IMG/VR virus record: IMGVR_UViG_3300024265_000061
Coordinates: 1 to 55,673 of that record
Origin: a virus
Lineage: Duplodnaviria; Caudoviricetes
DNA length: 55,673 nucleotides
Reading direction: 5' to 3' (one strand)
The position numbers were made by a program, and so were the translations under genes. The notes beneath the pieces are model-generated. The model was not told where the DNA came from, did no database searches, and saw only the letters and a list, made by a program, of their open reading frames with translations. Of the stretch, positions 931 to 54,221 are shown piece after piece (position 1 is the first letter of the stretch; the number at the start of each line of letters is the position of its first letter).

Positions 931-1719
931 ATGATGCCAAAACTAAACGAAATAAGACAAGGTCGGGACATTGGCAAAAAACCAGATGCTCAAAAATTTA
1001 TCTGGGCTGCTTGTCCTGATTGTGAGATAGCTCGTTGGGTTGTTCTTCTTGTAGGAGAAAATAAACCTCAACGAGAACGATGCAGAGCATGTGCTCAACA
1101 TCTCCGTAAAGGAGAAAAAAGAGGCATCGCCCATAATCGACTCAATCTCATCGGCCAACGGTTTACTCGTTTAGTTGTATTACATGATACTGGAAAAACA
1201 AAGCATAAAGAAAGTCTCTGGGAATGTCAATGTGATTGTGGTAACATAACAGTCACAACTGGTTATAGTCTTACTTCTGGAAACACAAAAAGTTGTGGGT
1301 GCTATCACAAGATACGCACCCAACAGCTTTTCAGTAAACCATTAGATGAATTACGAGTTAATCGAATTTTCTTTGCTTATCGGAAACTTGCCCGAACTAA
1401 AGGTCATTGTTTCAAACTCTCTAAGGAGCAAATTCAAAGTTTGATTTCCGCTGATTGTTACTACTGTGGATGTAACCCTGAAAATTCTCTGGTATATCAC
1501 GGAAAAACTATTATCTATCAAGGTATCGACCGATTAGATAATTCCAGAGGATATGAGACTAAAAATGTCGTTCCTTGTTGCATACGGTGCAATAAAATGA
1601 AAAAAATCTTGAGCCACGATGAGTTTCTGTTGCACATTCACAGAATATCTTCGAGGTTTGAGACAGAATCTCCACAGGCTGATTGTTATTCCGAAGTCTG
1701 CGGAGGTCAAGTTCTTTAG
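931..1719 (+). CDS. HNH-type homing endonuclease with Zn-binding N-terminus
   Basis: GQRFTRLVV..WECQCDCGN..SGNTKSCGC domain; CYYCG..GIDRLDNSRGY..NVVPCCIRCNKMK nuclease motif. Confidence 0.85.
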   Translation: MMPKLNEIRQGRDIGKKPDAQKFIWAACPDCEIARWVVLLVGENKPQRERCRACAQHLRKGEKRGIAHNRLNLIGQRFTRLVVLHDTGKTKHKESLWECQCDCGNITVTTGYSLTSGNTKSCGCYHKIRTQQLFSKPLDELRVNRIFFAYRKLARTKGHCFKLSKEQIQSLISADCYYCGCNPENSLVYHGKTIIYQGIDRLDNSRGYETKNVVPCCIRCNKMKKILSHDEFLLHIHRISSRFETESPQADCYSEVCGGQVL

Positions 1720-1730
1720 AAAAAGTGAAT

Positions 1731-1801
1731 AACGGAGAGGTCGATATTTTTCATTTTCTTCCTTTCTCGTAGTCGGTGTTTCAGACCTCTCCGTTTTCTT
1801 T
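1731..1801 (+). terminator. Long-loop hairpin/terminator after the capsid-HNH unit
   Basis: AACGGAGAGGTC (1731-1742) pairs with GACCTCTCCGTT (1784-1795), followed by TTCTTT. Confidence 0.65.
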
Positions 1802-1831
1802 GAAATGTAATTTAGCTAAGGAGAAAAAACA

Positions 1832-2866
1832 ATGGCTTTAACTATAAAAGAGGCCGTCCGGAAGTGGGGGCCGGAATACCTCACCATTTGCGGAATCGCA
1901 AATTATTTCCCCACAATGAACTACAATTCCCATGTCTTTTTTGTCGATGGAAACTCGGCAGTAGGCGATGACGGTGTTAATAGATTGGGACAGGTTCCCG
2001 ATGAACCCCTCCTGACGATTACTCACGCATTGAGTTTATGTACCAGTGGTGCAAATGACTACATCTTCGTCTTGAATTATCCCAGTACCGCCCCCGCAGA
2101 GACTTGGCCTATCGTAATTAGTAAACAGAGAGTTCATATCCTCGGCATACGCAACGGGATACTTCCGACCTTCAAGATAGTGGCTCCAGGTGACACCACC
2201 GATACTCCGGTTTTTGCCTTTGGTGCTGCCGGTGGAACATACGGAGCATACTGTGAAATCGCCAACTTGATATTGGGCAGTGAAAAGGCTGACTCAATTC
2301 GTGGAGCTATAGAGAGTCACTATGGGGGTGCATGGGGCAATCATATCCATCACTGTCACTTTGGCCCAGAGGGTCGAAGCAACACTGGTGCATCCTACGG
2401 CATCGTCGCCGGTCGTTCTTCCAGTACCTATACTGCTGGCGAATTGCTCTATGGCTTGATTGAAAAGTGTACTTTTGGCAAGTCGCTTATTGAGGCTGGC
2501 ATTTTTGTAGGTTCTGGCTTAGCTGATAGTGGGCCGAATGCTATTTATGGATTAGTCATCCGAGACAACACCTTCTATGTCAATTCGGGTGACGTAGGTA
2601 TCCATATCAACAAGGCGACCGCAAACTTCCGAAATGGTGGAATCTACAACAACAGATTCATCTTGGCCGCTGACGACACGGGCGATGCCATTACCTTAGC
2701 GGCTGGTGTAACTGGTGGAATGATTGATGGCAACGTCGCTGGTGTGCTGGCGAATCTTGCTTCTATGTCGAACAATCCGTACTTAACAAATACTGCCTGC
2801 GGCCCTGCGTGGGGTCGGAATTACAAGGGTGGTTCAGAACTTGTTGTCAGGCCAGCATTGGCTTAA
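1832..2866 (+). CDS. Virion protein with right-handed beta-helix (pectate-lyase-like)
   Basis: VFFVDGNS..GDDG..PDEPLLTITHAL motif followed by I..C.F / I..N.F beta-helix repeats. Confidence 0.65.
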   Translation: MALTIKEAVRKWGPEYLTICGIANYFPTMNYNSHVFFVDGNSAVGDDGVNRLGQVPDEPLLTITHALSLCTSGANDYIFVLNYPSTAPAETWPIVISKQRVHILGIRNGILPTFKIVAPGDTTDTPVFAFGAAGGTYGAYCEIANLILGSEKADSIRGAIESHYGGAWGNHIHHCHFGPEGRSNTGASYGIVAGRSSSTYTAGELLYGLIEKCTFGKSLIEAGIFVGSGLADSGPNAIYGLVIRDNTFYVNSGDVGIHINKATANFRNGGIYNNRFILAADDTGDAITLAAGVTGGMIDGNVAGVLANLASMSNNPYLTNTACGPAWGRNYKGGSELVVRPALA

Positions 2867-2883
2867 TTTTAGGAGAATTTATT

Positions 2884-3865: not shown

Positions 3866-4390
3866 ATGCTTGTTCATACAGTTAGAGCAGCTTGGACGGC
3901 GATTAGAACAGCCATAGCTACGGTAGATTGGCCGACGACCGGTGGAAATACATACGACCCTCCGGATGATGTAACAGAGCGGTTTGTTGATTATATGGTT
4001 GATACCGATGAAGCTGCCTTGCCATATATCAATTTATCTAACGATACGGCTCTGAACCATCTGGAACTTCGGGCACATTTTAACGACAACGCAGGCACGG
4101 CCACTATGCAAATATTCGCAGCCCGCGAAGGTGAAACTACTGTTAAAATGATTGCAGAAGTGGCGTGGACTGCCGGAACTCAACCAACGGCCATATCATC
4201 GGCTCGATATTTTGCCAAAACAGGTGTTGTGACTCAATATTGGAATAAAACTATTAGTGTTACTGCGGAGGAATCTGGAACAGGAATTGCAACGGTCTCA
4301 TTCGATACTTTTGGTTACAATAGATTTTGGATTGGCTTCGATGCCATCAGCGGTTCAGATAATGTGACAGTCGAATATAGTGGACTTTGA
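3866..4390 (+). CDS. Hypothetical beta-rich virion protein
   Basis: 174 aa, AGGAG RBS, within the structural module. Confidence 0.55.
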   Translation: MLVHTVRAAWTAIRTAIATVDWPTTGGNTYDPPDDVTERFVDYMVDTDEAALPYINLSNDTALNHLELRAHFNDNAGTATMQIFAAREGETTVKMIAEVAWTAGTQPTAISSARYFAKTGVVTQYWNKTISVTAEESGTGIATVSFDTFGYNRFWIGFDAISGSDNVTVEYSGL

Positions 4391-4396: not shown

Positions 4397-5680
4397 ATGC
4401 CTCCAAAACATGATAAGAAAATCAAAAAAAAGATGGGTTATACTCTTACATATGATGACGAACTAAAAAAATCCATTTGGAGAGGATTCCCAGACCTTAA
4501 CTATTTATTTGAGGGGGAAGATATACTTGTCTGGGAACGTGAGATTATCAACGAAGATGGGAAGAAAGAAACAGTCAAGACCTACAAACTGCCTATTAGG
4601 ATAACCGCCGATTTCAAACCTGAAAGCATAGTTTACGGCCTCGACAAGGAAGGCAAAATTGAGGGGGCTGCCGTCAAGAAATTCGGCGGTGCACTTAAAG
4701 GTTTTGTGTGGCTTGATAATGTATCTGGTGGTGGTGAAGTTATTTTCCCGTTTACAGCCCCACACATATTCATAGCCAAAGGTAGCAGACTTCTCCCGGA
4801 ACTCATTGAAATCTTTACAGACCCTAAATCTGATAATTACTACAAGATTGTAGATGAGAAAACCCACGTTTTTGTCCAGAGCTTTTCCGGTGTCGGCGGT
4901 GCTGCCGGTTCTCCACCCACGCTTATTGCTGAGTACAAAATGAATGATAGGCTTGCTACTGCTGTCATTCTTGATTCAAGTGGAAATGGCCATAATGGGG
5001 CGGTTAAAGACGCCACAGGAACGGCGACCTCGGCATTTCATTCTGTAGTTGGAAAAATAAATAGAGCACAAGACTTGGATGGGACAGATGATTACATTAA
5101 GATACCTGACCACGCCAACTTTACCCCGGCCTCGACTCCGTTTAGCATTGAGACATGGATTTATATGCACGATACTTCTAATTTTCGGATTATAACCAAA
5201 GGAGTATTTAATACAGATGCCGAATGGCTGTTGCGTATATTTAGCAATAAGTTGGGTATATTCTTTTACGATGAATCTGTTGATGATTGTTTTATTGGCC
5301 GAAGTTATGATACAGCTTTAGTCGAAAATCGGTGGTATCATTCAGTCGCAACTTATGATGGAGGAACTTTAACTTCTGGAATAGGAATCTATGTAGATGG
5401 TAAACGTGTTGATGATAAGGATATTCATAGTAATCCTGACTCTTTTGTGGCTGTAGAAAATCTCAATGCACCTGTTTATATTGGTCGATTGGGTACAGAT
5501 TATGCTGACGGCCTCATCGATATTACAAGATTCTACAACAAAGTACTCACACTTGATGAGATTAAACGTCTTTATAACAACGGACATGGAACTGAAATAT
5601 TAACTGAAGTAGATGAACCTCGATTGCTATTGAGACGCAATAATTCACAGTTTGGCCTCCGCAGTAGATATGAAAAATAA
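4397..5680 (+). CDS. LamG/concanavalin-A-like domain virion protein
   Basis: DSSGNGHNG..LDGTDDYI..FSIETWI..WYHSVATYDG..IYVDG..IDITRFYNKVLT. Confidence 0.8.
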   Translation: MPPKHDKKIKKKMGYTLTYDDELKKSIWRGFPDLNYLFEGEDILVWEREIINEDGKKETVKTYKLPIRITADFKPESIVYGLDKEGKIEGAAVKKFGGALKGFVWLDNVSGGGEVIFPFTAPHIFIAKGSRLLPELIEIFTDPKSDNYYKIVDEKTHVFVQSFSGVGGAAGSPPTLIAEYKMNDRLATAVILDSSGNGHNGAVKDATGTATSAFHSVVGKINRAQDLDGTDDYIKIPDHANFTPASTPFSIETWIYMHDTSNFRIITKGVFNTDAEWLLRIFSNKLGIFFYDESVDDCFIGRSYDTALVENRWYHSVATYDGGTLTSGIGIYVDGKRVDDKDIHSNPDSFVAVENLNAPVYIGRLGTDYADGLIDITRFYNKVLTLDEIKRLYNNGHGTEILTEVDEPRLLLRRNNSQFGLRSRYEK

Positions 5681-5692
5681 AAGGAACAAATA

Positions 5693-5917
5693 ATGGCTAA
5701 ATATGATTTAATTCGGGCTTTGATGGGGATGAAACACAGCCCTGCGGGTCTAAAACATATTACGAGTAAAAGATTCGCAGCCGCCGAGAAGAAAGCTGGC
5801 AAAAAGAAAAAAGGAGTAACTGCTGGTATGCGTTCTCACAGGATAGATTCTGCATTGAAGAAGGCGGGTTTAACCGATGCTCAAATTCGTAATTTAAGGG
5901 GAAGTAAAACCGAATAA
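5693..5917 (+). CDS. Small basic protein
   Basis: K/R-rich 74 aa, AAGGA RBS. Confidence 0.55.
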   Translation: MAKYDLIRALMGMKHSPAGLKHITSKRFAAAEKKAGKKKKGVTAGMRSHRIDSALKKAGLTDAQIRNLRGSKTE

Positions 5918-5938
5918 CTTTTTTGAAAGGAACTGAAA

Positions 5939-6124
5939 ATGAATCCTACAGAACAAGCACACAACCAGTTGCGGCAAGTATTACTTAAGGGTCGGATACT
6001 ATTTAACGGAATGCCTCTGACCGGGGAAGAATTAGGGTCAATAGTTCGGGATGAGCAGATGCTCTATGAAAAGGCAATGCAACTGGACAAGGTCAATGCA
6101 CCTGTCACTGTTAAAAAGGAGTAA
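5939..6124 (+). CDS. Hypothetical protein
   Basis: GAAAGG RBS, tight gene packing. Confidence 0.55.
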   Translation: MNPTEQAHNQLRQVLLKGRILFNGMPLTGEELGSIVRDEQMLYEKAMQLDKVNAPVTVKKE

Positions 6125-6127
6125 AAT

Positions 6128-6520
6128 ATGCTTGGGATGATCTCTGTATTTACCTCCGCAGAACATACAATTATCAAAGGTAGTGGGATTCCTGAATTCT
6201 TAGGGCGATTAGTGGAAGGGGACTCTCAACGGAAGGGTTGTCTATTCCTTATTCGATATAATAAGCTCGGAGTCTTTTGTATCTGTGAATGGATTGGTGG
6301 TGGCCAAGATACTTTTGTGGATATTTTGAATCTCGGGAAATCTCTGGGAAACTTCGGTCATGCGGAGGCCCAGGAACTACGCAGACGATTATTTGCCCCG
6401 GTTACTGCGGAGGAATCAGCCCAAGAAATTATAAGGAATGATAGCGATTTCTACCACAATCTTCAAGACGAGGATTCAGAAGAAACAGAAAGACAGGAGC
6501 GAGTTGCGATAGGAGAATAA
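6128..6520 (+). CDS. Hypothetical protein
   Basis: AAGGAG RBS, 130 aa. Confidence 0.6.
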   Translation: MLGMISVFTSAEHTIIKGSGIPEFLGRLVEGDSQRKGCLFLIRYNKLGVFCICEWIGGGQDTFVDILNLGKSLGNFGHAEAQELRRRLFAPVTAEESAQEIIRNDSDFYHNLQDEDSEETERQERVAIGE

Positions 6521-6521
6521 A

Positions 6522-7109
6522 ATGCCTATTAGCGAAGAGTCAAGACAAAAGATGGGTTGGAAGAAGGGTAGACTTTTTACTGCTTATTGGAAATCTTGTG
6601 TAATATGCGGGAAAGAATTTAAGACTGTTCCATCAAGCAGTAAACAATATACTTGTAGTTCTAAATGTATGGGAATAAGAAGAAGAGTTGAACGCAAAAC
6701 CTATAAATGTGCTTTTTGTAATGAAGATATAACTGCAATTAAAACATCTGGACGTAAATACTGTAGCAATAAATGTAAAATAAATGCTTTAGCTGTGTTA
6801 AAGAAACAGCGATATGCAAATAAAAGAATATTTGGCAAATGGCGAACTCATAAAACATTAAAAGCATATTTGCTTGATAAGTATAGAGCATGTCAAATAT
6901 GTGGTTGGAATTCTGAAATAAGAGTATTGGAGAAACACCATATAGACCGAAACAAAAAGAATAATGTAGAGGATAATCTTTTACTTCTATGCCCTAATTG
7001 TCATTCTATTGAACATTATAAGGCTTTGGACGGCCAATATAAATATAGCTTGGGAGGTCTTCGAGATGCCCTTCAAGTCGGAAAAGCAAAGAGGTTGGTT
7101 ATGGCATAA
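6522..7109 (+). CDS. HNH endonuclease with Cys-rich N-terminal repeats
   Basis: CxxC..CSxKC repeats; CQICG..LEKHHIDRNKKNN..NLLLLCPNCH. Confidence 0.85.
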   Translation: MPISEESRQKMGWKKGRLFTAYWKSCVICGKEFKTVPSSSKQYTCSSKCMGIRRRVERKTYKCAFCNEDITAIKTSGRKYCSNKCKINALAVLKKQRYANKRIFGKWRTHKTLKAYLLDKYRACQICGWNSEIRVLEKHHIDRNKKNNVEDNLLLLCPNCHSIEHYKALDGQYKYSLGGLRDALQVGKAKRLVMA

Positions 7110-7203
7110 CAAACCAAAACTTGCAAAGAAATGGACTAAGAAATATAGAGCTAAAATTGTCGCCAAGATGATAAAACATAAACGTAAAGGAGTTCACAAA
7201 TGA
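7066..7203 (+). CDS. Small basic phage protein (MPFKSEKQR type)
   Basis: GGAGG RBS before ATG 7066; MPFKSEKQRGWLW..PKLAKKW. Confidence 0.6.
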   Translation: MPFKSEKQRGWLWHNKPKLAKKWTKKYRAKIVAKMIKHKRKGVHK

Positions 7204-7358
7204 ATGGGATAGAACGCGATGAGCTACTAATAAGAATTGATGAACGGGTATGCAGTCTTACTAAACATTTTACTAATCACATTAAACATCACTGGATGGT
7301 AGCTATCCCTGTGATTATGTTGGTTTTAGGATTGGTTATTGCTTTGTTGACAAAGTAA
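7200..7358 (+). CDS. Small membrane protein, possibly holin-like
   Basis: 52 aa, MNGIERDELLIRIDER.. with one C-terminal hydrophobic helix; below the ORF-track cutoff. Confidence 0.45.
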   Translation: MNGIERDELLIRIDERVCSLTKHFTNHIKHHWMVAIPVIMLVLGLVIALLTK

Positions 7359-7379
7359 ATTTAAGAAAGGTAGTTACAA

Positions 7380-8939
7380 ATGCCTGCTCCTATTTCATTG
7401 CCCCCAAATCTCGGAGATTACTTAGTAGATTCGACGGTCTACATTTTCTGGGATACTTTTAATTCCAGTAATGCCTCCGTGACCCAGAGCGGTCTCGCCG
7501 TAACCGATATTGAAATCTATAAAAATGAGAGCATGACTCAACGGGCCTCTGATGCGGGTTATACACTTCTTGACACCGATGGGATTGATATTGATGGGGC
7601 TACTGGTTGTCATGGGATTTCTATTGATTTAAGTGATAATACCACAGCAGGATTTTATGTTCGGGGAAATGATTATTCGGTTATGGTTAATGCCGTAACC
7701 GTTGACGGCCAGACTGTACGATTCTGTGCAGCCGTCTTTAGTATTGAGAATCGAGCCGGAAGAAATGGAGTTGGGGATTATCAAGTTACTCTGACGATTC
7801 GGACTACCGGTGGAGATGCTGTTTCTGGGATTTCTGTATGGGTCAATAGTTCCAATACTCGTTCTGCTTCCGTAGCTGGAACCAAAGTCACTGACACGAA
7901 TGGCCAAATTGTGTTCAATCTGGAATATACTACATACTATATATTCTGTAATTTGTCTGGTTATACTTTTGCTTCTGCGTCTTTTACCTCCGCAGCAGGA
8001 AGTGTTTCATTCACAAAAGATATAGCTACGGTCACAAGTGCTGGCTCAAGTGCTTACTATACTGAGAGCTTTTTAACAAGAGCAATAGTGGATGCACGGG
8101 AAAGTACAGATGAACCAGTCGTTGCAGCTAAATATTCAGATTCAAGGATCATAAATATTCTTGAAAAAGCATATATACTGGTTCTTAATGAGGTGAATCG
8201 AAACTCTCGGACACCTGCCGTTGCTAAAATTAACAAGACGATTGTTTCCGGGACTACAACATATCCACTACCTCATACTGTTGGGTCTGTTCACGGAATC
8301 TATAAAGTAGGTGATACTGGTGGAAAGGTTTTTTATGATTCTCGAAGTAAATTTAATTCATTCGGGAGAGGTATGTGGATTGAGAATCAAACTCTTCATA
8401 TCCAAACCACTGATATGTATGGTCTTGGGACAGAAATAACAATCGAATATATCCCATCAGGAATTGCAAGGCTTCACAATGGAACCTGCACTCTGAATGC
8501 CGATGGTGATGTTGTAACGTTTGGTGCTGTTCCAAATGCAGGAGCACTTGATACACATCACGAGGCTTATGCAGGAAGTATATTCAGATGTTTAGGGTCA
8601 GATGGAACTGGAAATTATTTGCAGGAACGAGTAATACCAGCCTACGACGAAACTACACGGGAAGCCTCACTTGATGCTCCTCTTGATCCAATTCCAACTG
8701 GGAATATTTATTACGAGATTGCACCTGCGATTAGTAAGGGAATGGATACTGTCGTTGCCTTATATGCGGCCTATAGGATTATGGCTACTGAAGGAAATGC
8801 TAAAAGAGCCACAGGTATTCTCAAGGCTTACCGGAATGAAATAAGAAATGTCCGATTAACGGCCTACTATTCCTATTTACCTGATGCCCCGATAGACCGG
8901 AGTGATAACCCTAACAACAGACGTTATTGGAGAGGTTAA
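7380..8939 (+). CDS. Tail adaptor (tubular-A-like) protein with Ig-like N-terminal extension
   Basis: 519 aa; C-terminal half resembles a head-tail adaptor (helical start, YPLP, VVALYAAYR); position in tail module. Confidence 0.5.
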   Translation: MPAPISLPPNLGDYLVDSTVYIFWDTFNSSNASVTQSGLAVTDIEIYKNESMTQRASDAGYTLLDTDGIDIDGATGCHGISIDLSDNTTAGFYVRGNDYSVMVNAVTVDGQTVRFCAAVFSIENRAGRNGVGDYQVTLTIRTTGGDAVSGISVWVNSSNTRSASVAGTKVTDTNGQIVFNLEYTTYYIFCNLSGYTFASASFTSAAGSVSFTKDIATVTSAGSSAYYTESFLTRAIVDARESTDEPVVAAKYSDSRIINILEKAYILVLNEVNRNSRTPAVAKINKTIVSGTTTYPLPHTVGSVHGIYKVGDTGGKVFYDSRSKFNSFGRGMWIENQTLHIQTTDMYGLGTEITIEYIPSGIARLHNGTCTLNADGDVVTFGAVPNAGALDTHHEAYAGSIFRCLGSDGTGNYLQERVIPAYDETTREASLDAPLDPIPTGNIYYEIAPAISKGMDTVVALYAAYRIMATEGNAKRATGILKAYRNEIRNVRLTAYYSYLPDAPIDRSDNPNNRRYWRG

Positions 8940-8941
8940 TT

Positions 8942-11248: not shown

Positions 11249-11257
11249 GGATATATT

Positions 11258-11596
11258 ATGAGCATAAGTAAAATCACCAAAGGAACATACATATTAAATA
11301 ATTCAGGTGACCGTGTTACTTTAGTAGAAGCAGCCGATCCCCTACAGGGAACTTGTTTGAAATTAACCGGCGATACTGTTTATCGCAGTGTACCCGTTAC
11401 AGCAGATAGCTGGAATACATTTATGCCAATTTTAGGTAATTGGTTGTTTTCAACCGAAGGAACTGTAGAAACCGTATCAAATATAGGATGGGTATGTCCA
11501 GTTAATAAATCAATTTTGATACATATTCCTGCTGGAAAAACTACACTATATTATAGTGGTTCTGCTGATTTTGGTTATTTAATAGAATTAGCATAA
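11258..11596 (+). CDS. Hypothetical tail-associated protein
   Basis: 112 aa directly after the fibre gene. Confidence 0.55.
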   Translation: MSISKITKGTYILNNSGDRVTLVEAADPLQGTCLKLTGDTVYRSVPVTADSWNTFMPILGNWLFSTEGTVETVSNIGWVCPVNKSILIHIPAGKTTLYYSGSADFGYLIELA

Positions 11597-11612
11597 GTTA
11601 AGGTATTGAGTT

Positions 11613-11948: not shown

Positions 11949-11962
11949 ACAGGAGATAAATA

Positions 11963-42686: not shown

Positions 42687-42708
42687 AGAGAAAATTGAAA
42701 GGAACCTA

Positions 42709-43551: not shown

Positions 43552-44249
43552 AAAAACAAGGTATAATTCGATCTTTCTCCACCGGCCCCTATAACAAAAT
43601 GAACGACACCGAACAATGGATACGCCTCTCCCAAGGATGTCCCAATCGATGTGACTTCTGTTATGAACCTCCGCAGATGATTGAATTTCCAATCCCGCTG
43701 ATTGAACGCAACCGGGTTAAGATAATGGACATGAACCTACTATCTCAAAAGGACGCTATCTATACTATTCAGCATTTAGGTGGGATTAAAGTCAACAACA
43801 AAGTCGTACACTATGAACTCGTATGTGGAATAGACCATCGATTTCTAACTCTTCTTCTTGCGGAGGGTTTGAAAAAATCCCGATTCAAAAAGATTCGTCT
43901 GGCGTGGGATTTCGGATACATGGAACAATTTAGGATCAGGAAGGCTCTGAAATTATTGATGGCTGTCGGGTACAGGTCGAAAGATTTGACTATCTTTATG
44001 ATTTGCAACTGGAAAATCCCCTACGAGGAATGTCTCAAGAAACTGTACCTATGTGCTATATGGTCTGTGAAGGTAGCCGATTGCTACTTTGACGGCCAGA
44101 TTTCTCCAAACATAATCCCTATTGGATGGGCGGCAGACCAAATAAAAGACTTCCGCAGGCGTGTCCGAAAACATAATCAACTGGTGAATTTTGGGATAGA
44201 CCCTGAACTGAAAAAGCCCTCTTGGAAACACATCAAAAATCTGATATAA
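43548..44249 (+). CDS. Radical SAM superfamily protein
   Basis: LSQGCPNRCDFC (CxxxCxxC), then DMN, GIDHR, IRLAWD partial TIM-barrel motifs. Confidence 0.75.
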   Translation: MKKQGIIRSFSTGPYNKMNDTEQWIRLSQGCPNRCDFCYEPPQMIEFPIPLIERNRVKIMDMNLLSQKDAIYTIQHLGGIKVNNKVVHYELVCGIDHRFLTLLLAEGLKKSRFKKIRLAWDFGYMEQFRIRKALKLLMAVGYRSKDLTIFMICNWKIPYEECLKKLYLCAIWSVKVADCYFDGQISPNIIPIGWAADQIKDFRRRVRKHNQLVNFGIDPELKKPSWKHIKNLI

Positions 44250-44268
44250 TATAGTAAAGGAAGAAATT

Positions 44269-44685
44269 ATGGGTGAATTAAAGATACCAAAAGTCCACGA
44301 CTTCGGTTTTGGAGAATTAGTCGAGCTTTCTCATTTAGAGACCACCTTTGATATTTCAAGAGGGGTCGCATTAAAATATCTCAAAGTTCTACATATTCAA
44401 CCTCTATATTTTAAGGATGATGTATTTTTCTGTTTGCCTACTTTTAATAGGATTTTATTTGTTCTTAGTCGGCCCGGCAGTCCCGGATTCATATTTCCTG
44501 CCAGCAAAGCCAAGGCCAATCAACATCTCCGCAAGAAAGGTTTTCTCACTGAGGTCAATGATGGCATCCTCACAGAAGCCGCTTCCCCCCGAATCTTGGC
44601 AGAGATGGCGGCTACTTCCGGTCGGGACAATTCAATGATTAAAAAGTTAGTTACACATCCCTCCGCAGAGAAAGGGGACAAATAA
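44269..44685 (+). CDS. Hypothetical protein, possible HTH
   Basis: LSHLETTFDISRGVALKYL. Confidence 0.5.
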   Translation: MGELKIPKVHDFGFGELVELSHLETTFDISRGVALKYLKVLHIQPLYFKDDVFFCLPTFNRILFVLSRPGSPGFIFPASKAKANQHLRKKGFLTEVNDGILTEAASPRILAEMAATSGRDNSMIKKLVTHPSAEKGDK

Positions 44686-44838
44686 TATGGCGAGGTTTTG
44701 TGTGGATTGTGAATGGTTAAAAAATGGGCGATGTCCTAAAACTAAGAAAAATAATTATCCGTTAAGTTCAGATAGTCCCTATATAAACCCCGATGATTGG
44801 TGTGCGGATTTTAGTCTTAAACCAGAAAGAGTTGAAAA

Positions 44839-45111
44839 ATGAAGTTAGCTCGTTTGTGGAATTTATTGCCTAATGATTTACATTTGTTTGGGCCGGGGAC
44901 ACGAATCCATAGGCTCGTTCAGAGGATTATAGATAAAGTAAAGAAGTGTCCGAATTGTGGTAGTTCTCAATTCCAAAAAAATCGACTACGTTGTTATCGG
45001 GGTTGGCATTGGTTTTGTCTTGATTGCTCTCTTAGTTTCAGAACCGCTGTGGATTGTCCCGTCTGCTATAAAAAACTTCCAAACTCTATAAAAAAAGGGG
45101 AACAAAAATGA
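44839..45111 (+). CDS. Zn-ribbon hypothetical protein
   Basis: CPNC, CLDC, CPVC. Confidence 0.5.
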   Translation: MKLARLWNLLPNDLHLFGPGTRIHRLVQRIIDKVKKCPNCGSSQFQKNRLRCYRGWHWFCLDCSLSFRTAVDCPVCYKKLPNSIKKGEQK

Positions 45112-45629: not shown

Positions 45630-46376
45630 ATGACCAACGAAATTGAAAAACCAAATCCTGATGATGTGTTGGCGGCCATTACCAGCTTTAATGACCCGTC
45701 TATCATCACAAATATATTTCGGGAACTTGGGTGGACATATTCTTTTGAGATTAAAGAGTGGCTTATATTGGCCAAACAGAATGCCAATCTCTCTGTTAAA
45801 TCTAAAGCTCTTATTCAGCTTCGTCATTTACTACAGGAGGCCGCTGAAACTGCGGGTTATACAGCTAAAATATCTCAAACGATGCCTAATGCCCAAGGAG
45901 GTCAAACTACTTTCTCAGCAAAACGTATCTCCGGTATTTTGAATCCGGTCAAACAAATAAAATCAACTATTAAGGAATCCAAAAATGTCCAAACCGAAGA
46001 AACCCGAACCGAACCCAATCGAGAAAGCGATAGGCGAGAGAACGAAACCGAAAACGGAAGTGGAGAAAATACTCCAAGCCCCGACAGAGGTAGCAAAGAA
46101 GATTCTATCCGAGATACCAGACGAGCCTTCCCCCTCGGAGATGCTGAATTTGGAGGAATTGAACCGCCAGACGGAGGAGAGATTTCAGGAAGAGTGGCCG
46201 GAGGATGCGGCGACGGGGCCGACAACTGTAAAGACAGCGGAACAACTCAAAGAGGAGAGGGTATTGGGAATGGCGGAAGTGGTGGGGTCATTGAAGGAGG
46301 AAGTCCCTGTATCAAAACCCGTCCCCCAACCTGTGACAGAGATTTATTCCCCGGAATCTCCTCCGCAGAAGAATGA
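45630..46376 (+). CDS. Hypothetical protein, candidate small terminase
   Basis: Helical N-terminal 118 aa, upstream of the large terminase; tail overlaps the next ORF. Confidence 0.45.
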   Translation: MTNEIEKPNPDDVLAAITSFNDPSIITNIFRELGWTYSFEIKEWLILAKQNANLSVKSKALIQLRHLLQEAAETAGYTAKISQTMPNAQGGQTTFSAKRISGILNPVKQIKSTIKESKNVQTEETRTEPNRESDRRENETENGSGENTPSPDRGSKEDSIRDTRRAFPLGDAEFGGIEPPDGGEISGRVAGGCGDGADNCKDSGTTQRGEGIGNGGSGGVIEGGSPCIKTRPPTCDRDLFPGISSAEE

Positions 46377-46869
46377 TTTTTATTGTCCTGCTTGTGGGAT
46401 TTCGTTTGAGAGTAATAAGGTTCTAATAGGCCATGATTGTGAAGCAGCCCAAAAAGAGGTGCAAGAGTATGAGGGTATGAAAAAAGAATTCACAACACTT
46501 CAAATGAATTGTAAATATTGTATTCCTGCGGAGGATATTGAACTTACGGCTCTTCGGAAATATATTCTGGAGGATGGTTTTGTCTTGGCCACCGTCGCTT
46601 TTCATATCGTGACATTATGTGCTCAACCGATGGTGACACCATCAACGACTACTTGGGATTTCAAAGACCGGGCAAATGTTCCAGATATGGTTTTGGCTCT
46701 CCTGAATCAGCCAGGGTATCTTGAAGGTATTTGGCCAAGCCTGAGAATTGTGATGGGTTCAAATAAAGGTAATTCTGCTTGGTGTGCAGGAATCGCTACG
46801 ACCTTGGCATTTTTCGATACCGTGAGGTTGCTCCCAACATTAAAGGAGTTACAAGATGAAGAAAAGTAG
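45985..46869 (+). CDS. Hypothetical protein with E/P-rich N-terminus and Zn motif
   Basis: Own AAGGA RBS; FYCPACG..HDC. Confidence 0.55.
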   Translation: MSKPKKPEPNPIEKAIGERTKPKTEVEKILQAPTEVAKKILSEIPDEPSPSEMLNLEELNRQTEERFQEEWPEDAATGPTTVKTAEQLKEERVLGMAEVVGSLKEEVPVSKPVPQPVTEIYSPESPPQKNDFYCPACGISFESNKVLIGHDCEAAQKEVQEYEGMKKEFTTLQMNCKYCIPAEDIELTALRKYILEDGFVLATVAFHIVTLCAQPMVTPSTTTWDFKDRANVPDMVLALLNQPGYLEGIWPSLRIVMGSNKGNSAWCAGIATTLAFFDTVRLLPTLKELQDEEK

Positions 46870-47083: not shown

Positions 47084-48931
47084 ATGTGGCTAAATAGACC
47101 TTATCCGCTGTGGCCTCTACCGAGGGACTACGAGGAACTGAATTCTGAAGCTCAGAAGCAGGCACGGTTGACTGTGTTGCATAATCAATCAACTCCTTTT
47201 GACTTGGTAGTTGCTTGGGATTTTTTTCGTCGCTGCTACTTAGCTGGGGCCGGAAAACTCTTTTATAAAAAGTCCTTTGAGGAATCACCTGAATTTCATT
47301 ATGAGTTAGTTAATGACCTTGGGCAATATGCCAGAAATTGTATAGCCGCCCCAAGAGGTTCTGCTAAATCTACTGTGATAGGATTGGAAATCCCTATATT
47401 ACTTGCTCTAACTCGTCCTCATTATGAAATGTCACTTGGGTTATCTACCGATAAACAAGTAGAAAAGCGATTTAGTAAAATAATGCAACAATTTGTAAAG
47501 AACGAGTTAATATTGCAGGACTTTGGGGAGATGAAACCGCGTCGTGGCTTGGGTATATGGAATCATCATTATTTACAGTTGGAAAATGGAGCCGTTATAA
47601 ATGGAGAAAGTGTAATGGGAAAAAAGAGGGGGGGGAGACCTCGATTATATATACTCGATGACCCTGAGTTTGATCCGGATTCTGATTCACAGGCCGCTGC
47701 TCAAGCTGTTATAGAGAAATTTGAGATGATTTTATTTCATCAGATTTTACCCATGCTTGAAGAGGGTTCGTCAATTTTCTGGATAGGAACATTGATTAAT
47801 CGGCGGTCTTTTTTGTATCACGCTACGGAGGGAGACGACCCTCGATTTAGTTTTTGGAATCGCAAAGTCTTGAAAGCAATAGCGTATGATAAAGAGGATT
47901 CTAAAAAGGTTTATGTTCTGTGGCCAGAAAAGTGGTCGCAGGAATTTCTTGAGGCTCTTCGTGAGTCGATGGGGCCATCTGCATTTGCAAGTGAATTCTG
48001 TAATGAGCCGGTGTCGGCACAAGAACGCATTTTAGTGATTGACCCTCGGAAGAATGAATATAGTGTTGATGGTGAATTTGATTGGAAGAATCCGCTGGCC
48101 CACATGGGGAATATAAAGTGGTCGGAACGATATATGGAGCCCGGACGCCGGGTCTATAAAGACTTTGAGAAACCCTACAAAGAACTCGTGTTGCCGATGT
48201 ATCGGATTTTACTATTCGATTATGGCAGTGGGATGTCCCAGTATAATGACTATTCCTGTATTATGATTCTTGGATTTGACACCACGAATACTTTATGGAT
48301 TTTGGATATGTGGCTTGGACGTGCCAAGGATGCGACTTTACTACGACTGATTTATGAATACGGATTGGCTTGGCGACCGCGTGTTCTTGGAATTGAAGCC
48401 GTGAGTATTCAGATGAGTTTTGCGGAGGCCGTTAAAGAATATATTGAGGAGATGGAGGAGAAAATCTCACAGCCTTGGAGAGCGAGAGTTTTCCCAATTA
48501 CATATCCGGCTCGTGTAACTAAATCTAATCGAATCTCTGGTATGGAATGGAGATACCGTCCCGGCAGGATAAAATATCCGGCACACCTCGCTGGCAAGTG
48601 GCCCTTTGATCAGCTATATCAACAGACGGAGGATTTCACCCCAGACTTGGCCTTATTGCCCCACGATGATGCTATTGATACCCTCTCAATGTATCAGTAT
48701 GTTGTTAAGAATCGTGGTGGGAAATTCGTTAAAGAGAAGGGGAAACCAAGTTTGTTGGAGCGTATTAAGAGAAATCTTCCCATTGTGCGTGGAATCCCAC
48801 TACTTTCGGGGGTCAGTTCTACCGAAATCACTTCGGAGATGCTTGATATACTCTCCCAGAATGCCCGCAAAAGTGTTATAGATAAAAATGACCGCCGAGT
48901 AATTCGAGGCCAAAGAAACATTATAGGATAG
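47084..48931 (+). CDS. terL: Terminase large subunit
   Basis: Walker A APRGSAKST, Walker B YILDD, IGT coupling motif, nuclease FD..DYS..HDDAID. Confidence 0.9.
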   Translation: MWLNRPYPLWPLPRDYEELNSEAQKQARLTVLHNQSTPFDLVVAWDFFRRCYLAGAGKLFYKKSFEESPEFHYELVNDLGQYARNCIAAPRGSAKSTVIGLEIPILLALTRPHYEMSLGLSTDKQVEKRFSKIMQQFVKNELILQDFGEMKPRRGLGIWNHHYLQLENGAVINGESVMGKKRGGRPRLYILDDPEFDPDSDSQAAAQAVIEKFEMILFHQILPMLEEGSSIFWIGTLINRRSFLYHATEGDDPRFSFWNRKVLKAIAYDKEDSKKVYVLWPEKWSQEFLEALRESMGPSAFASEFCNEPVSAQERILVIDPRKNEYSVDGEFDWKNPLAHMGNIKWSERYMEPGRRVYKDFEKPYKELVLPMYRILLFDYGSGMSQYNDYSCIMILGFDTTNTLWILDMWLGRAKDATLLRLIYEYGLAWRPRVLGIEAVSIQMSFAEAVKEYIEEMEEKISQPWRARVFPITYPARVTKSNRISGMEWRYRPGRIKYPAHLAGKWPFDQLYQQTEDFTPDLALLPHDDAIDTLSMYQYVVKNRGGKFVKEKGKPSLLERIKRNLPIVRGIPLLSGVSSTEITSEMLDILSQNARKSVIDKNDRRVIRGQRNIIG

Positions 48932-49723: not shown

Positions 49724-49807
49724 TTAAAAATATACTATGTATCCTGATTATCGCTTATACCCTGCGGAGGATATATTGCATATTTAGGAAACATTGGAGA
49801 ACTTACA

Positions 49808-50093: not shown

Positions 50094-50390
50094 ATGTTTA
50101 ACTTGAATTTGGGATTAATTTTCTTGGCTGGACTGGTTTCGGTTGGGATTCTTGTTTATATTCTGGTACTGTTAATAATTCAGCTTAAAATCGTCAATCG
50201 TCTCACTGAAACTAATAAGCAGCTTCTTATTGTTGTGGCGGGGCAGAATCAGAAACCAGAGACATTACGAGCACTTGTGGCATCGGCAAAACCTCCGCAG
50301 GGGAAGTTAAAAGGGATAGCTGGTGGGGGGAAAGATAAGAAGAATAAGTCTGGTAATACCAATTTCACAATGGATATAGGGGTTAGATAA
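50094..50390 (+). CDS. Small membrane protein
   Basis: N-terminal transmembrane helix, basic tail. Confidence 0.6.
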   Translation: MFNLNLGLIFLAGLVSVGILVYILVLLIIQLKIVNRLTETNKQLLIVVAGQNQKPETLRALVASAKPPQGKLKGIAGGGKDKKNKSGNTNFTMDIGVR

Positions 50391-52411
50391 TGGGCTATAA
50401 GTTCCAGTTACCAGAAAATACACCTGGGAATAAACAGCAAGTTGAGGCTATATTCCAATATCTTGTCTCGTCAGGCAAGTCGAAAATGAATCCCATTTCG
50501 ATTAATTGGTATATGAATCATTTCTATATGAGGGGATTACGGAATTTTAGTAATATTAATTATGGAGCTGGCACACTTAATGCGTCTTATCTGGACTCAT
50601 CTGGGACACTGAAGTTTAAGTACGAGGACATCGTGGCGAAATATCAAGCCCAGCTTGGGAGGTTATTGGCGATAAATCTGGCTCCGGCTGTATCAAGGAG
50701 AGGTGTGAGTCTTGATGGTTTAAGGAAGGCAAGTACCGCTCAAGTCGTTTTGGATTCCGCTTTCCCACAAGAGAAAGTTTCTAAATTGGCTCTGAGTGCT
50801 TTCCCTCCACTTCTGCACTATGGAACTATTGGATTTGGATTATGGGTTGAGGGAATTGATAGTATTGGGATTGAGGTTATCAATCCTTGGGAATTGATTC
50901 CGATTCCAATAGATGTCTCTACGCCGTCAGATGTGCGAGGATTGATTCGAGTACGATATGTGCCCTCAGATTATGTGAAGGGTCTTTCAATAACTCCGGG
51001 TAAGGGGTCAAAAGTCTATAAGGGGATGGATGATGTGAAAGTTCCTTTGGGGGACATACCTGCGGATGTATCCTCTAACTTCCGAGGAACTGCTTCTCTT
51101 ACTCATACAGGCGGGGGCTTTTATATTCGTAGTGGTCAGAGTCAAGTTGAGACTCAATGGAAAGGGCGACATACTAAAAAAGACAAGACGCAAGTTGATG
51201 TTACCCTGCTTGTTGAAGTGTGGACAGAAACATCGGATGGATATTTGGCAGAGTATCTTATTTTTGCCGGTTCTTATGAGAAATTAAATCAGTTGTATCG
51301 CCACGATCATTCTCAGAGTAAATATCCTATGCCTGTGAAAATTGCACGGGATATTGTTGTAGGTGGATTTTATGGTCGTTCTTTTATTGATATTTTAACT
51401 CCACTGAACACCGAGGCCGAATACAGTCTTAGTAGTCTCTTTCAATCAGTAGCCGATTTTGATTTGTACGGTGTAATGATGTGGCCTGCATCTCTTGGGA
51501 CACCTACAGATGCTCATAGAGGGAGGGATGGAATCAAGCGAATAACATTCGAGCCTGATTATACAACCCCGGAATTAAAACCTTTCCCTCTATTACCTGC
51601 AAAAATGGGGAAAGCTAACATAGAGGCTGCGATGGTTGCTGGTGGTTTGATGGACAAACTTGCAAATCAGCCAAGAGAAATGATGCAGGGGGATGCTCCT
51701 GGTCGTGTGGATTCTGCTTCTGGCTTGGGTTTCCTTTACGAAACAAGTGGAATTCCTCTTTCCCCCACAGCTAAAAATGTGGCCGAGGCAATATCAGGAA
51801 TCTACAGGGCAATGTTAGGAATATGTAAAGATATTTGGCCTGCGGAGAAGGTTGTTAATATCAGCAACCTCGATGATTCTCTGGCCGGAATAGCTTTCGA
51901 TATGGAAACCGGGGAAATCAATCTCGCCAGAAATGCTATCCCTGCTCCTGATGAGGTCAACATCAATGTGGCTTCCGAAGTTCCAATTTCTACGGAGCAA
52001 CAAAAATTAGAATTAAAAGAAGCCCTTGAAAAACAAATAATCACTCTTGGTGAATATGGTTTCGAGGTTAGAAAAAGAGGATTAAATTTGGTGGTCGGCA
52101 ATGAAGTTGATTATCAGAATCGAAGGCGAGCGAAACTCGAAAATCTTGCTCTTTACGGGGATGGAGAAAAACCCGGTAAAGTTATCGTAAGTGAACGCGA
52201 TATGCACCTAATTCATAAAGAAGTACTTGATGCTTTTATGGCTCGGCCTGAATTCTACGCCGCAGACCAAAAAGTAAGAGACGCTTTTGTGCAACACTAC
52301 GAAGAACACAATGTCGGATTGGGAATATTCCCGGAAGGAATGCCTCCGATGGAAGATGCCGCAGAAATGGAAATGCAACCTCCGCAGGGTGGAGGCGAAA
52401 TACCACAATAA
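50390..52411 (+). CDS. Portal protein
   Basis: 673 aa between terL and scaffold; INPWELIP, GFYGRSFID..PLN, GRVDSASG. Confidence 0.8.
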   Translation: MGYKFQLPENTPGNKQQVEAIFQYLVSSGKSKMNPISINWYMNHFYMRGLRNFSNINYGAGTLNASYLDSSGTLKFKYEDIVAKYQAQLGRLLAINLAPAVSRRGVSLDGLRKASTAQVVLDSAFPQEKVSKLALSAFPPLLHYGTIGFGLWVEGIDSIGIEVINPWELIPIPIDVSTPSDVRGLIRVRYVPSDYVKGLSITPGKGSKVYKGMDDVKVPLGDIPADVSSNFRGTASLTHTGGGFYIRSGQSQVETQWKGRHTKKDKTQVDVTLLVEVWTETSDGYLAEYLIFAGSYEKLNQLYRHDHSQSKYPMPVKIARDIVVGGFYGRSFIDILTPLNTEAEYSLSSLFQSVADFDLYGVMMWPASLGTPTDAHRGRDGIKRITFEPDYTTPELKPFPLLPAKMGKANIEAAMVAGGLMDKLANQPREMMQGDAPGRVDSASGLGFLYETSGIPLSPTAKNVAEAISGIYRAMLGICKDIWPAEKVVNISNLDDSLAGIAFDMETGEINLARNAIPAPDEVNINVASEVPISTEQQKLELKEALEKQIITLGEYGFEVRKRGLNLVVGNEVDYQNRRRAKLENLALYGDGEKPGKVIVSERDMHLIHKEVLDAFMARPEFYAADQKVRDAFVQHYEEHNVGLGIFPEGMPPMEDAAEMEMQPPQGGGEIPQ

Positions 52412-52429
52412 TAATTTGAAAGGAACAAA

Positions 52430-52723
52430 ATGGAAAGAACAAACGTTTACAGATTGATTGATGGAGAGCGGGAATACCAAGAATCTTTGCCTTTGCATCA
52501 GGATAAAAAACAACAGCGAAATACCCCGATAGCATCTTGGTTGATTTATATGGAAGAACAAATTAGAGAAGCGAAGTTCGCTATATATAATTTGAATGGA
52601 GATGGGGCATTAGAGCATATACGAAAAGCAACGGCTATTGGTGTAGCTTGTATGGAGCATAACGATACAAATCCTCGGAAAGTTCTTTCTCAAGGAAAAC
52701 TACATACTTACGATGGTAGTTAA
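52430..52723 (+). CDS. Small helical protein (MazG-like fold possible)
   Basis: IDGEREYQ..WLIYMEE..IRKATAIGVACME. Confidence 0.55.
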   Translation: MERTNVYRLIDGEREYQESLPLHQDKKQQRNTPIASWLIYMEEQIREAKFAIYNLNGDGALEHIRKATAIGVACMEHNDTNPRKVLSQGKLHTYDGS

Positions 52724-52753
52724 GATAAATACAAAAATTTTGAAAGGAAAAAA

Positions 52754-53311
52754 ATGTTTCGATTGAAAAAAGGGGATATTGTTATAATTAAGGATGATAG
52801 TACCTTGTCGCCTGTATATGGTGGTTCCAAACGGAGTATTGTATCGGGGACACTGGTTGAACAAATTTTTCTTCTTAAATATAAACATTTATTTAGAATT
52901 GTCGAGCTTGATTGTATATTTCCTGATACGAATAACAATACTGTAATCCAAGCTATAACGCCGGAAGATCATCAAGTGGTAATATTTATTGAATATCGTT
53001 ATCTCCAATTATATGAAAAATCAATACTCCCTGACGAAATAGGGCCATTACTGCCAAGTCAAAAACCTCCAGAACAACGTAGCACAATATTCACTTTATC
53101 CGAAAGAAAAAAAAAGAACGAAAAAATCAAAAGGCCAGAAAAAGAAACCTACCGTGTTGAGGTAATTTGCTCTAATTGTGGAAAATTCCAACATGACTCA
53201 AATAGTGGTATAGGTTTTGAAATTCCAAAAGGTACATCAACCCCCCGATTTTTGGCTGACAAGCCCTGCGAGGGTTGTGGTTGTAAGACATTAAGAGCCA
53301 GAATCTTATAA
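52754..53311 (+). CDS. Hypothetical protein with C-terminal Zn ribbon
   Basis: CSNCG..CEGCG. Confidence 0.55.
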   Translation: MFRLKKGDIVIIKDDSTLSPVYGGSKRSIVSGTLVEQIFLLKYKHLFRIVELDCIFPDTNNNTVIQAITPEDHQVVIFIEYRYLQLYEKSILPDEIGPLLPSQKPPEQRSTIFTLSERKKKNEKIKRPEKETYRVEVICSNCGKFQHDSNSGIGFEIPKGTSTPRFLADKPCEGCGCKTLRARIL

Positions 53312-53339
53312 GTGAAATCTTATTTTAGAAAGGAAAAAA

Positions 53340-54221
53340 ATGCCAGAGCCAGAATCCAAAATAGAGCCGGTCGTAGAACCGAAAACTGAACCCAAGACAG
53401 AGCCAAAAACCGAACCAAAGGTTGAAACCCACACTATTAAGGTGGATGGAGCAGATGTAGCCTTGACTCTTGACGAGCTAAAAACAAGAGCCGAAAAAGC
53501 GTCGGGGGCTGACAAAAGATTTCAAGAATCCGCAGAAGGCCTAAAAACCGCTGAGCGGGGAATTAGGATAGAAACTCTCGTAAAGTCAATATCTAACAAC
53601 GATACGCCGTCAGAAGCCGATGTTCGTGAGTTGGCCGGATTGTTGGAGATTGAACCTGCTGAGTTTATGTCCTATCTTAAAGAAGGTGAGCCTGAGCCGA
53701 AACCAGGCACAAAAACCACCTCCGCAGACTTTAATACTGAGTTCCAGAAGGTGATGGGGGCTTCCCCTGCGGAGGTCAAAGCTGTTTTGGATTTCTCCCA
53801 GCAACGGCACGTCAATGATGCTCGGAAAGAAATTCGAGAAATATCGGACAAAGCGGTTGACAAAGATGAGATAATTGGTAAAATGATAGTAGGTGAGGAC
53901 AGCAAAGAAGTGTTGTCCGAAGTTAAGAATATGGTAGCTGAGGATGTTCTACAGAAGATACAGAATGGAAAGACGTTTGGAGCCGAGTTGGTTACGGCGA
54001 GCGTACAGATGGTGCGGTCGAAGTTGACTAAATTGGGTATCCCAAAGAAACTCAACCAGCAACCCATTGTTTTGGGCCTGGCTCCGAGTGAAGGACTTTC
54101 ATCTTTAATCCAAGCTGATGAACCAATCAAGCGAGTTCCTTCTAACGAAGATGACCAAGAGAAGAATCTTATCGCAAGGTATCTTCAGAAGGCAGTTCAT
54201 ACTGCTCGGAAAATGAAGTGA
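53340..54221 (+). CDS. Capsid scaffolding protein
   Basis: EPKT repeats, HTIKVDG..LTLDEL motif, helical; upstream of the capsid gene. Confidence 0.75.
   Translation: MPEPESKIEPVVEPKTEPKTEPKTEPKVETHTIKVDGADVALTLDELKTRAEKASGADKRFQESAEGLKTAERGIRIETLVKSISNNDTPSEADVRELAGLLEIEPAEFMSYLKEGEPEPKPGTKTTSADFNTEFQKVMGASPAEVKAVLDFSQQRHVNDARKEIREISDKAVDKDEIIGKMIVGEDSKEVLSEVKNMVAEDVLQKIQNGKTFGAELVTASVQMVRSKLTKLGIPKKLNQQPIVLGLAPSEGLSSLIQADEPIKRVPSNEDDQEKNLIARYLQKAVHTARKMK

Follow-up and report, generated by a model that had tools for sequence, protein, structure and literature searches.

A dispersed nine-letter DNA word under strand-specific selection in a family of uncultured tailed phages

The phage genome and its nine-letter word

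The stretch of DNA analysed here (the window) is a whole virus record, IMGVR_UViG_3300024265_000061, which comprises 55,673 bp and belongs to a phage of Caudoviricetes. Dispersed through its genes is the nine-letter word CTGCGGAGG, of which we counted 36 exact copies where 0.19 would be expected, an excess of ~190-fold, and it is the commonest 9-mer in the window. All of the positions listed in the original prediction were correct on recount, and the division between the strands is 17 on the + strand and 19 on the - strand, as opposed to 18/18.

About 95% of the window is coding, and every large open reading frame (ORF) lies on the + strand. Proteins were annotated by Pfam scans of ~58 of the 91 ORFs and by PHROGs for 8 more large ORFs. 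We observed a gene for the large terminase subunit, a weak match to a tail sheath protein, a DnaB/RepA-like helicase gene, and a family A DNA polymerase at 22739-25408, in which residues 49-197 form an N-terminal domain of the uracil-DNA-glycosylase superfamily (UDG-like). Genes with roles in nuclease action and recombination encode ERCC4, PD-(D/E)XK, a Sak4-like AAA_24 ATPase, an SbcD-like exonuclease and endonuclease VII. The gene for the SbcD-like exonuclease adjoins that for a T5-like deoxyribonucleoside-5'-monophosphate (dNMP) phosphatase at 34295-35783, a neighbourhood suggestive of host DNA degradation in infected cells. Three HNH endonuclease genes (6522-7109, 25506-26120 and 36200-36673), one of them fused to an AP2 domain, are sporadic among relatives and look like free-standing homing endonucleases. 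Neither a primase, a DNA methyltransferase or an integrase nor a lysogeny module was found among the scanned ORFs, and the window yielded no tRNAs and no Rfam matches, such that neither a tRNA nor a known RNA family was detected as a source of the word. No close cultured relative was found by megablast, and the best protein matches had at most 25% identity.

Chance and base composition are ruled out as the origin of the word by shuffling, since none of 100 shuffles reached 36 copies, and by a control word, the same letters read backwards, which occurs only 0-2 times in each of the related genomes described below. The core TGCGGAGG is found 43 times in the window, preceded by C in 36 cases, by T in 6 and by A in 1, and the word is an eight-letter G-rich core plus one letter, (Y)TGCGGAGG. 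One-mismatch forms of the word are likewise enriched (24 versus ~6.4 expected), and the variant TTGCGGAGG has six copies in the window, some of which are kept in relatives. The flanks are unconserved except for a weak preference for a pyrimidine immediately before the word and a T immediately after it, which rules out a mobile element or a longer repeat. Within genes, where 31 of the 36 exact copies lie, the word is used in all three frames and both orientations and encodes differing peptides, which rules out a protein motif. A literature search with the word and its complement returned, among the matches listed, only primer-type text and nothing on a word of a phage or bacterial genome.

Spacing, turnover and pair polarity

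We analysed the spacing of the exact copies strand by strand. The + copies leave 16 linear gaps (17 on the circle) with a minimum of 1186 bp and a mean of ~3.26 kb, and the coefficient of variation (CV) of these gaps is 0.49 versus ~0.95 for random placement (P = 0.0004-0.0014 for the CV and 0.0003 for the minimum gap). On the - strand the minimum gap is 497 bp and the CV is 0.67-0.71 (P = 0.04-0.08), indicating an evenness that is only mild. The earlier statement that all 17 gaps are at least 1186 bp therefore holds for the + strand, when counted on the circle, but not for the - strand. When both strands are pooled the CV is 0.88, which is random-like. The under-dispersion of each strand is retained with and without variants, being weaker on the - strand with exact copies; including TTGCGGAGG gives a CV of 0.55 for the + strand (P = 0.002) and 0.66 for the - strand (P = 0.03). 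One-mismatch copies at 12690, 13527, 31091, 43433 and 43858 are indeed present within the three largest + gaps, as had been reported. At 28994 (-, CTGCGGAGA) and 33931 (+, CTGCGAAGG) the window holds one-letter variants where relatives hold exact words; by comparison of the sequences these look like recent losses that would partly account for the longest gaps.

Same-strand neighbours are scarce in the window, with 3 same-strand pairs closer than 1 kb against 11.0 expected, while opposite-strand pairs occur about as often as expected (12 versus 11.6). Of the 12 adjacent pairs less than 700 bp apart, 11 are opposite in orientation, as originally noted, and permutation of the strand labels gives P = 0.0046. 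This excess arises mainly because same-strand neighbours are scarce, and the two statements are thus not independent of one another.

Relatives of the phage were found by terminase and polymerase searches. They are uncultured phage contigs, and in the related contigs found in this way the word is again the commonest 9-mer. Nine further genomes or large fragments (G001-G003, G006-G010 and G013) were read whole; their terminases are 53-85% identical to that of the window and their GC content is 0.41-0.55, within a range of 0.39-0.60 for the contigs of the family overall. The word is the top 9-mer in all nine tabulated genomes (tied in G009), and G013 has 38 copies of it; the nine further genomes have 15-57 exact copies each, with about equal numbers on the two strands except in G007 (20/11). 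Repetition of the per-strand test in relatives, which the original prediction had proposed, bore out the evenness: across the ten genomes, which share kinship and are not independent replicates, the CV is at most 0.76 in 18 of 20 strand sets and 0.93 and 0.98 in the remaining two, against ~0.95 for random placement. When the strands are pooled, 8 of the 10 genomes have a CV of 0.84-1.03. Same-strand pairs closer than 1 kb number 56 in nine genomes, whereas ~127 would be expected. In the clade of G009, which also includes L012, L013 and L018, the word is extended, such that 25 of 30 copies in G009 read CTGCGGAGGCC and C is favoured before the word; the short contigs L012, L013 and L018 have a lower density of the word. 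The second commonest 9-mer of G007, GATGCCGCC, was rejected as a second dispersed word, as it belongs to a tandem coding repeat at 29401-29731 of that genome (23 copies at 9-21-bp steps, with 2 more elsewhere).

We next compared sites position by position among G000-G003, about half of whose length can be aligned at ~73% identity. Apart from rotation these genomes are collinear, and there are identical ends of 121 bp in G002 and 123 bp in G003, as is seen in circular assemblies. Of the window's 42 YTGCGGAGG sites, 29, 28 and 23 are alignable in the three relatives, and 19, 18 and 14 of these (~63%) are exactly conserved, where our estimate of the neutral expectation is ~6% (0.73 to the ninth power). 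Projection of all sites onto window coordinates reveals seven groups in which sites on the same strand, 13-300 bp from one another, are mutually exclusive alternatives. For example, the window has a + site at 20160 and three relatives have one at 20302, and sites at 34521, 34680 and 34821 on the + strand occur one per genome; only one same-strand pair co-occurs at such distances. For 37 of 104 lost sites, the other genome contains a site on the same strand no more than 200 bp away, as compared with 16% of random aligned positions, and for 11 it contains one on the opposite strand; these comparisons are ordered and pairwise, and so contain double counts and shared ancestry. Conservation of sites together with same-strand replacement indicates that selection keeps a site on a given strand at about a given place, and not just fixed positions.

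The two strands are nevertheless not independent of one another, as had been supposed, since a close opposite-strand pair is much likelier to be back-to-back than head-to-head. By back-to-back we mean the order CCTCCGCAG...CTGCGGAGG on one strand, which is unchanged by reverse complementation, and by head-to-head the opposite order. In nine genomes, with orthologous pairs counted repeatedly (~8-9 independent loci below 100 bp in our judgement), there are 11 back-to-back and 0 head-to-head pairs at 0-50 bp and 5 and 0 at 50-100 bp, with 3.2 of each kind expected in either interval. The corresponding numbers are 20 and 6 at 100-200 bp (6.5 of each expected), 25 and 12 at 200-400 bp (13), 39 and 18 at 400-800 bp (26), and 45 and 48 at 800-1600 bp (52). 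G006-G010 were retrieved with the back-to-back pattern, by which their shortest pairs are ascertained; at 100-800 bp, a range not directly ascertained, they hold 52 back-to-back and 18 head-to-head pairs with ~28 of each expected. The window by itself shows a weak bias (1:0 below 100 bp and 3:4 at 100-400 bp). We also scanned virus contigs collection-wide and scored a stretch as word-rich if it had at least 3 further copies. Back-to-back scans gave 11 word-rich stretches out of 72 for gaps of 5-35 and 15 out of 43 examined for gaps of 36-66, and a head-to-head scan of virus contigs with gaps of 0-30 gave 0 out of 55. The polarity of close pairs is new here.

One conserved intergenic spot accounts for some of the short pairs, which form hairpins there, and others lie within genes (53719/53767). 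At the equivalent of window positions 36868-37389, G001, G003 and G010 have a hairpin of the form CCTCCGCAG-N14-CTGCGGAGG in which the loop sequence is variable, and the hairpin of G008 at the same intergenic spot has a 19-nt loop and, after it, eight consecutive T. The intergenic word hairpin of the relatives is adjoined by an AT-rich element (TTAGAAAATATCCACA-like) that is conserved. In the window this spot is occupied instead by the head-to-head pair 37045/37291, the two copies of which are 246 bp apart.

The word also occurs in a second, siphovirus-like lineage. Contigs L090, L082, L062 and L323 carry a siphovirus-type structural module (a phrog_29 head protein, tail terminator, chaperone and tape measure) and show no tblastx similarity to the ten genomes of the family. 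They contain 6 copies of the word in 6.9 kb (L090, with + copies at 840, 2455, 3985 and 5360), 5 in 6.4 kb (L082), 6 in 8.1 kb (L323) and only 3 in 6.5 kb (L062). Capsid scans of viral and metagenome collections for a longer contig of this lineage returned the same short contigs, L120 and the distant L298 (36% identity). L120, with 70% capsid identity to the second lineage, has only 2 copies of the word in 20 kb. Between positions 583 and 18392 of this 20-kb contig, TGTTGGAA occurs 9 times, 5 of them as yTGTTGGAACT on both strands, and a word based on it may be L120's own. The word that is shared may serve as a marker tying unrelated uncultured phages to one host or enzyme.

Possible roles of the word

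A word that is over-represented, dependent on orientation, under purifying selection and subject to turnover on its own strand is read here as a direction-sensitive DNA signal, of which stabilising selection maintains a copy about every 3 kb on each strand. Evenness within each strand and same-strand replacement agree with a requirement that either strand carry a site every few kb, and they argue against the promoter-linked operator that the original prediction had likewise set aside. That prediction had inferred a polar element acting on a moving machine. Orientation dependence, the use of all frames and per-strand evenness uphold a polar element at the level of DNA, but they single out no particular machine. 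A signal that depends on direction and is yet symmetric between strands points towards a process able to begin at DNA ends or initiation sites of both polarities; recombination, repair, and replication initiated by either recombination or a nick would be of this kind. The equal strand counts despite one-way genes indicate independence from the directions of transcription and packaging.

The most likely reading, to which we assign a probability of roughly 35%, is that the word is a Chi-like signal that tames a nuclease. A helicase-nuclease would load at any DNA end or break and degrade the DNA until it met a correctly oriented word, where degradation would halt and a 3' tail would remain for recombination or recombination-primed replication. 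Given a circular assembly and rotated relatives, ends could lie anywhere and face either direction, such that both orientations would be needed throughout, and even spacing would limit the loss of DNA. We infer the kind of enzyme, which could be a host enzyme of the RecBCD/AddAB type or the phage nuclease set (PD-(D/E)XK, SbcD-like and ERCC4). The density of the word, its G-rich core, its turnover, the enrichment of near variants and its sharing with an unrelated lineage all fit this reading; a shared host factor would account for the sharing. Chi sites are described as ones that "come and go" (Zheng et al., PMC12315714), and in the phages LLS and P1 Chi is the commonest word of its length with a density of one per 1.9 kb (PMC12315714), as compared with one per ~1.5 kb for the word in the window. 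Phages that are Rec+ and lack a RecBCD inhibitor can still be rich in Chi (Bobay 2013, PMC3784561). Chi in P1, LLS and other lambdoid phages that have no Rec module (PMC3784561 and PMC12315714) resembles the present word in being a short, G-rich, asymmetric and commonest oligomer that lies in genes, has enriched variants and turns over. It differs in length (5-8 letters versus nine with an eight-letter core) and in the size of the excess (~27-fold versus ~190-fold).

Several points weigh against a Chi-like signal. As a control we analysed P1 (NC_005856, a record in which C1 operators are also annotated), where Chi is found 31 times on the + strand and 19 times on the - strand, is clustered (CV 1.27 and 1.39) and shows no same-strand depletion. 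All four P1 Chi pairs closer than 100 bp, with gaps of 6 to ~50 nt, are head-to-head where 0.6 would be expected, in contrast to the back-to-back pairs observed here; two of the four would make short hairpins. In LLS, 20 of 23 Chi sites share one orientation and cluster at one end (PMC12315714). The clustering in P1 and the one-sidedness of LLS are unlike the present word, which is equally frequent on both strands and even on each. A plain Chi model predicts neither the back-to-back bias nor the absence of head-to-head pairs below 100 bp. Known Chi words are GC-rich and have 5-8 letters (PMC5959072, Table 3), and nine letters exceeds any Chi listed in that paper. The phage owns recombination genes (Sak4-like, PD-(D/E)XK, SbcD-like, ERCC4 and endonuclease VII), whereas Chi-rich lambdoid phages are mostly without recombination modules. 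The word is also constant over phage GC contents of 0.39-0.60, which would require one host specificity over very different hosts. A direct-pair scan revealed no word-rich prokaryote genome among the matches listed (at least 120 rows). L202, a candidate from the host search, was rejected as a 36-bp tandem repeat, and a terminase profile run against prokaryote genomes found no relative.

The closest rival holds that a phage enzyme nicks or primes the strand of the word and that the resulting 3' ends start synthesis. Back-to-back pairs would then be small bidirectional start units, and close head-to-head pairs would be shunned since converging synthesis would meet the other interruption. We regard this as possible, if on the doubtful side. 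The closest documented look-alike of the word is the nick word of tf, LUZ24 and Rembedalsseter (TACTRTGMC / WACTRTGAC), an exact 9-mer with 13-14 copies per ~46 kb whose positions are partly conserved. It occurs about once per 3.3 kb on its strand, ~88% within genes, in 61 phages with little DNA similarity (PMC3517423 and PMC11780129). The polarity of the pairs fits diverging action, with back-to-back to head-to-head ratios of 16:0 below 100 bp and 84:36 at 100-800 bp, and it was the back-to-back scans only that led to word-rich contigs (11/72 and 15/43 versus 0/55). Family-wide conservation of the word, at terminase identities down to 53% and over the whole range of contig GC content, also favours this rival, as does the extension to CTGCGGAGGCC in one clade, an outcome to be expected of a phage-borne reader that co-evolves with its word. 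The scanned ORFs include no primase, some members of the family lack a DnaB-like helicase, and a family A polymerase and the T5-like dNMP phosphatase are present. However, every nick word described in these sources, including those of the tf cluster, phiKMV-like phages and T5, is one-stranded and unevenly spread, as opposed to the two-stranded (17/19), even and back-to-back layout seen here. If two opposite words separated by only 23 bp were both nicked, the overlap between the nicks would be very short, and sharing of the word with an unrelated lineage would require transfer of the reader gene. In a weak test, contig ends are not in excess near words, with 2 of 47 within 30 bp of one (2.6% expected). 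The single public run that was found consists of contigs (Logan), of which 5 pieces match window positions 5001-25000; these contain no variants and 3 junctions, one of which (23738-23767) is centred on the word at 23754, a coincidence that is not significant.

A conserved candidate nickase was likewise not found, the three HNH genes being sporadic among relatives, which also rules out HNH-AP2 or the other HNH genes as a core reader. The non-structural genes common to all complete members encode the polymerase, ERCC4, PD-(D/E)XK, the Sak4-like ATPase, the dNMP phosphatase and several small proteins. Structure models of two conserved small proteins (pLDDT 70-73) show a likeness to XRE-type helix-turn-helix proteins for 27335-27658 (Foldseek probability up to 1.0, E ~0.3) and a weak likeness to winged-helix regulators for 44269-44685 (Foldseek E >0.1). 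Both would be ordinary DNA-binding folds of phages, to be treated as leads only and not as evidence of a reader. Profile searches of the PDB with three core uncharacterised proteins gave no matches. For the ORF at 45985-46869 the ESM Atlas returned nothing useful, and this ORF is probably not a small terminase, as its aligned C-terminal part is hydrophobic.

We hold it to be quite improbable that the word is an orientation-blind site for a binding, uptake-type, packaging or condensing protein. Uptake sequences (USS in Pasteurellaceae and DUS in Neisseriaceae) have 9-12 letters, lie on both strands at about one per kb in all frames, and form hairpins behind genes. They resemble the present word in its length, its occurrence on both strands in all frames about once per 1.5 kb, and the hairpins formed by some of its intergenic inverted pairs, one of them followed by eight T, and the two predicted DNA-binding folds could supply such a protein. 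Their carriers, unlike a phage, are competent bacteria. An orientation-blind site predicts pooled evenness, yet pooled spacing is random-like and each strand is even in itself. Replacement is also strand-specific (37 same-strand versus 11 opposite-strand sites within 200 bp, of 104), and the prokaryote matches listed (at least 120 rows) include no word-rich genome.

A signal at the level of RNA or expression, in which GGAGG and CCUCC words pair in transcripts as hairpins, terminators or translation controls, has an equally slim chance. The word ends in the Shine-Dalgarno-like GGAGG, a few + copies such as those at 22198 and 37045 stand shortly upstream of ATG codons, and the favoured pair order places the T-rich flank after the 3' arm, such that one intergenic pair resembles an intrinsic terminator. 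Against this, 31 of the 36 copies are intragenic and use every frame, most copies are solitary, it is not obvious why an RNA function would call for kilobase evenness or for the two forms in equal numbers, and the excess at gene boundaries is marginal (13 copies within 50 bp versus 8.4 expected, P = 0.06).

Least probable of all are dispersed sites of a phage regulator such as stoperators or the C1 operators of P1: asymmetric dispersed sites have precedents in Cluster A mycobacteriophages and P1, and a conserved XRE-type protein is present, but stoperator orientation follows transcription, whereas both orientations are equally frequent in this one-way genome, mostly in genes and not at promoters, and the scanned ORFs revealed neither an integrase nor a lysogeny module. 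Translocase guides of the KOPS/SRS kind are ruled out by the strong strand skew that they should show, the 17 and 19 copies being intermixed along the whole genome.

Returning to what a direction-sensitive signal would mean, different tailed-phage families may each keep a private word, arranged on both strands as back-to-back units that recur every few kb, a tentative generalisation to which we give clearly less than even odds. Such a word would be a candidate self-marker or start signal for an undescribed DNA-tracking enzyme. In one candidate version it would belong to a Chi-like system of the phage's own, by which phage DNA would be spared during the destruction of host DNA, and in another to two-strand replication from programmed nicks. 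The family studied here, if this is true, would be a clean, sequence-defined example of the layout, with a second layer of information running through the genes in ~3-kb units for some step of DNA processing. A two-strand, even and back-to-back layout is described in neither the Chi nor the nick-motif literature cited here, and an exact word with known copies makes the question directly testable.

Individual sites and regional features

Among the exact copies in the window, those kept in all of G001-G003 are at 6405-6413 (+), 12525-12533 (-), 14478-14486 (+), 23754-23762 (-), 27380-27388 (+), 46360-46368 (-), 46526-46534 (+) and 53767-53775 (+). The first of these is back-to-back with 6153-6161 (-), which is kept in G002, and the copies at 46360 and 46526 are back-to-back with one another. 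The copy at 53767 is back-to-back, 48 bp away and inside a gene, with 53719-53727 (-), which is kept in G001 and has a - site 28 bp off in G002 and G003. Copies kept in G001 and G002 are at 9177-9185 (+; G003 has a + site 59 bp off), 19019-19027 (-), 20797-20805 (-) and 52379-52387 (-; G003 has a - site 13 bp off). Those at 17480-17488 (+) and 50292-50300 (-) are kept in G001 and G003, and those at 13346-13354 (-) and 23384-23392 (+) in G002 and G003, the latter as TTGCGGAGG in G002. G001 keeps the copies at 16188-16196 (+), 16357-16365 (-) and 26904-26912 (-), G002 keeps the intergenic copy at 49762-49770 (+), and G003 keeps the intergenic copy at 21799-21807 (-).

One-mismatch forms replace the copies at 4263-4271 (+) and 5656-5664 (-) in G001 and that at 43668-43676 (-) in G002. 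The copy at 1698-1706 (+) is unaligned in G001-G003, that at 7987-7995 (-) is unconserved in relatives, and that at 33267-33275 (+) is unconserved as well. The copy at 20160-20168 (+) is private to the window, and the + site projected to 20302 in G001-G003 is 142 bp off; for 33541-33549 (-), G003 has a - site 138 bp off. Further intergenic copies lie at 22198-22206 (+), 37045-37053 (+) and 37291-37299 (-), the last in the region whose counterpart in relatives holds the word hairpin, and another exact copy is at 44660-44668 (-). The TTGCGGAGG variants are at 30437-30445 (-), 34821-34829 (+), 37540-37548 (+), 43433-43441 (+), 43858-43866 (+) and 48420-48428 (+). Within 300 bp of 34821, G002 and G003 each carry one + site at another position, G002 keeps the variant at 43858, and all of G001-G003 keep that at 48420 as TTGCGGAGG.

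Between 37.5 and 45 kb the GC skew of the window drops to about zero or below, ORFs are small and poorly conserved, and words are few; this region (37500-45000) could be a regulatory or origin region. The exact copy at 39985-39993 (+) leads directly into a G-rich tract, GGGGAGGGGGG..., within window positions 39985-40025.

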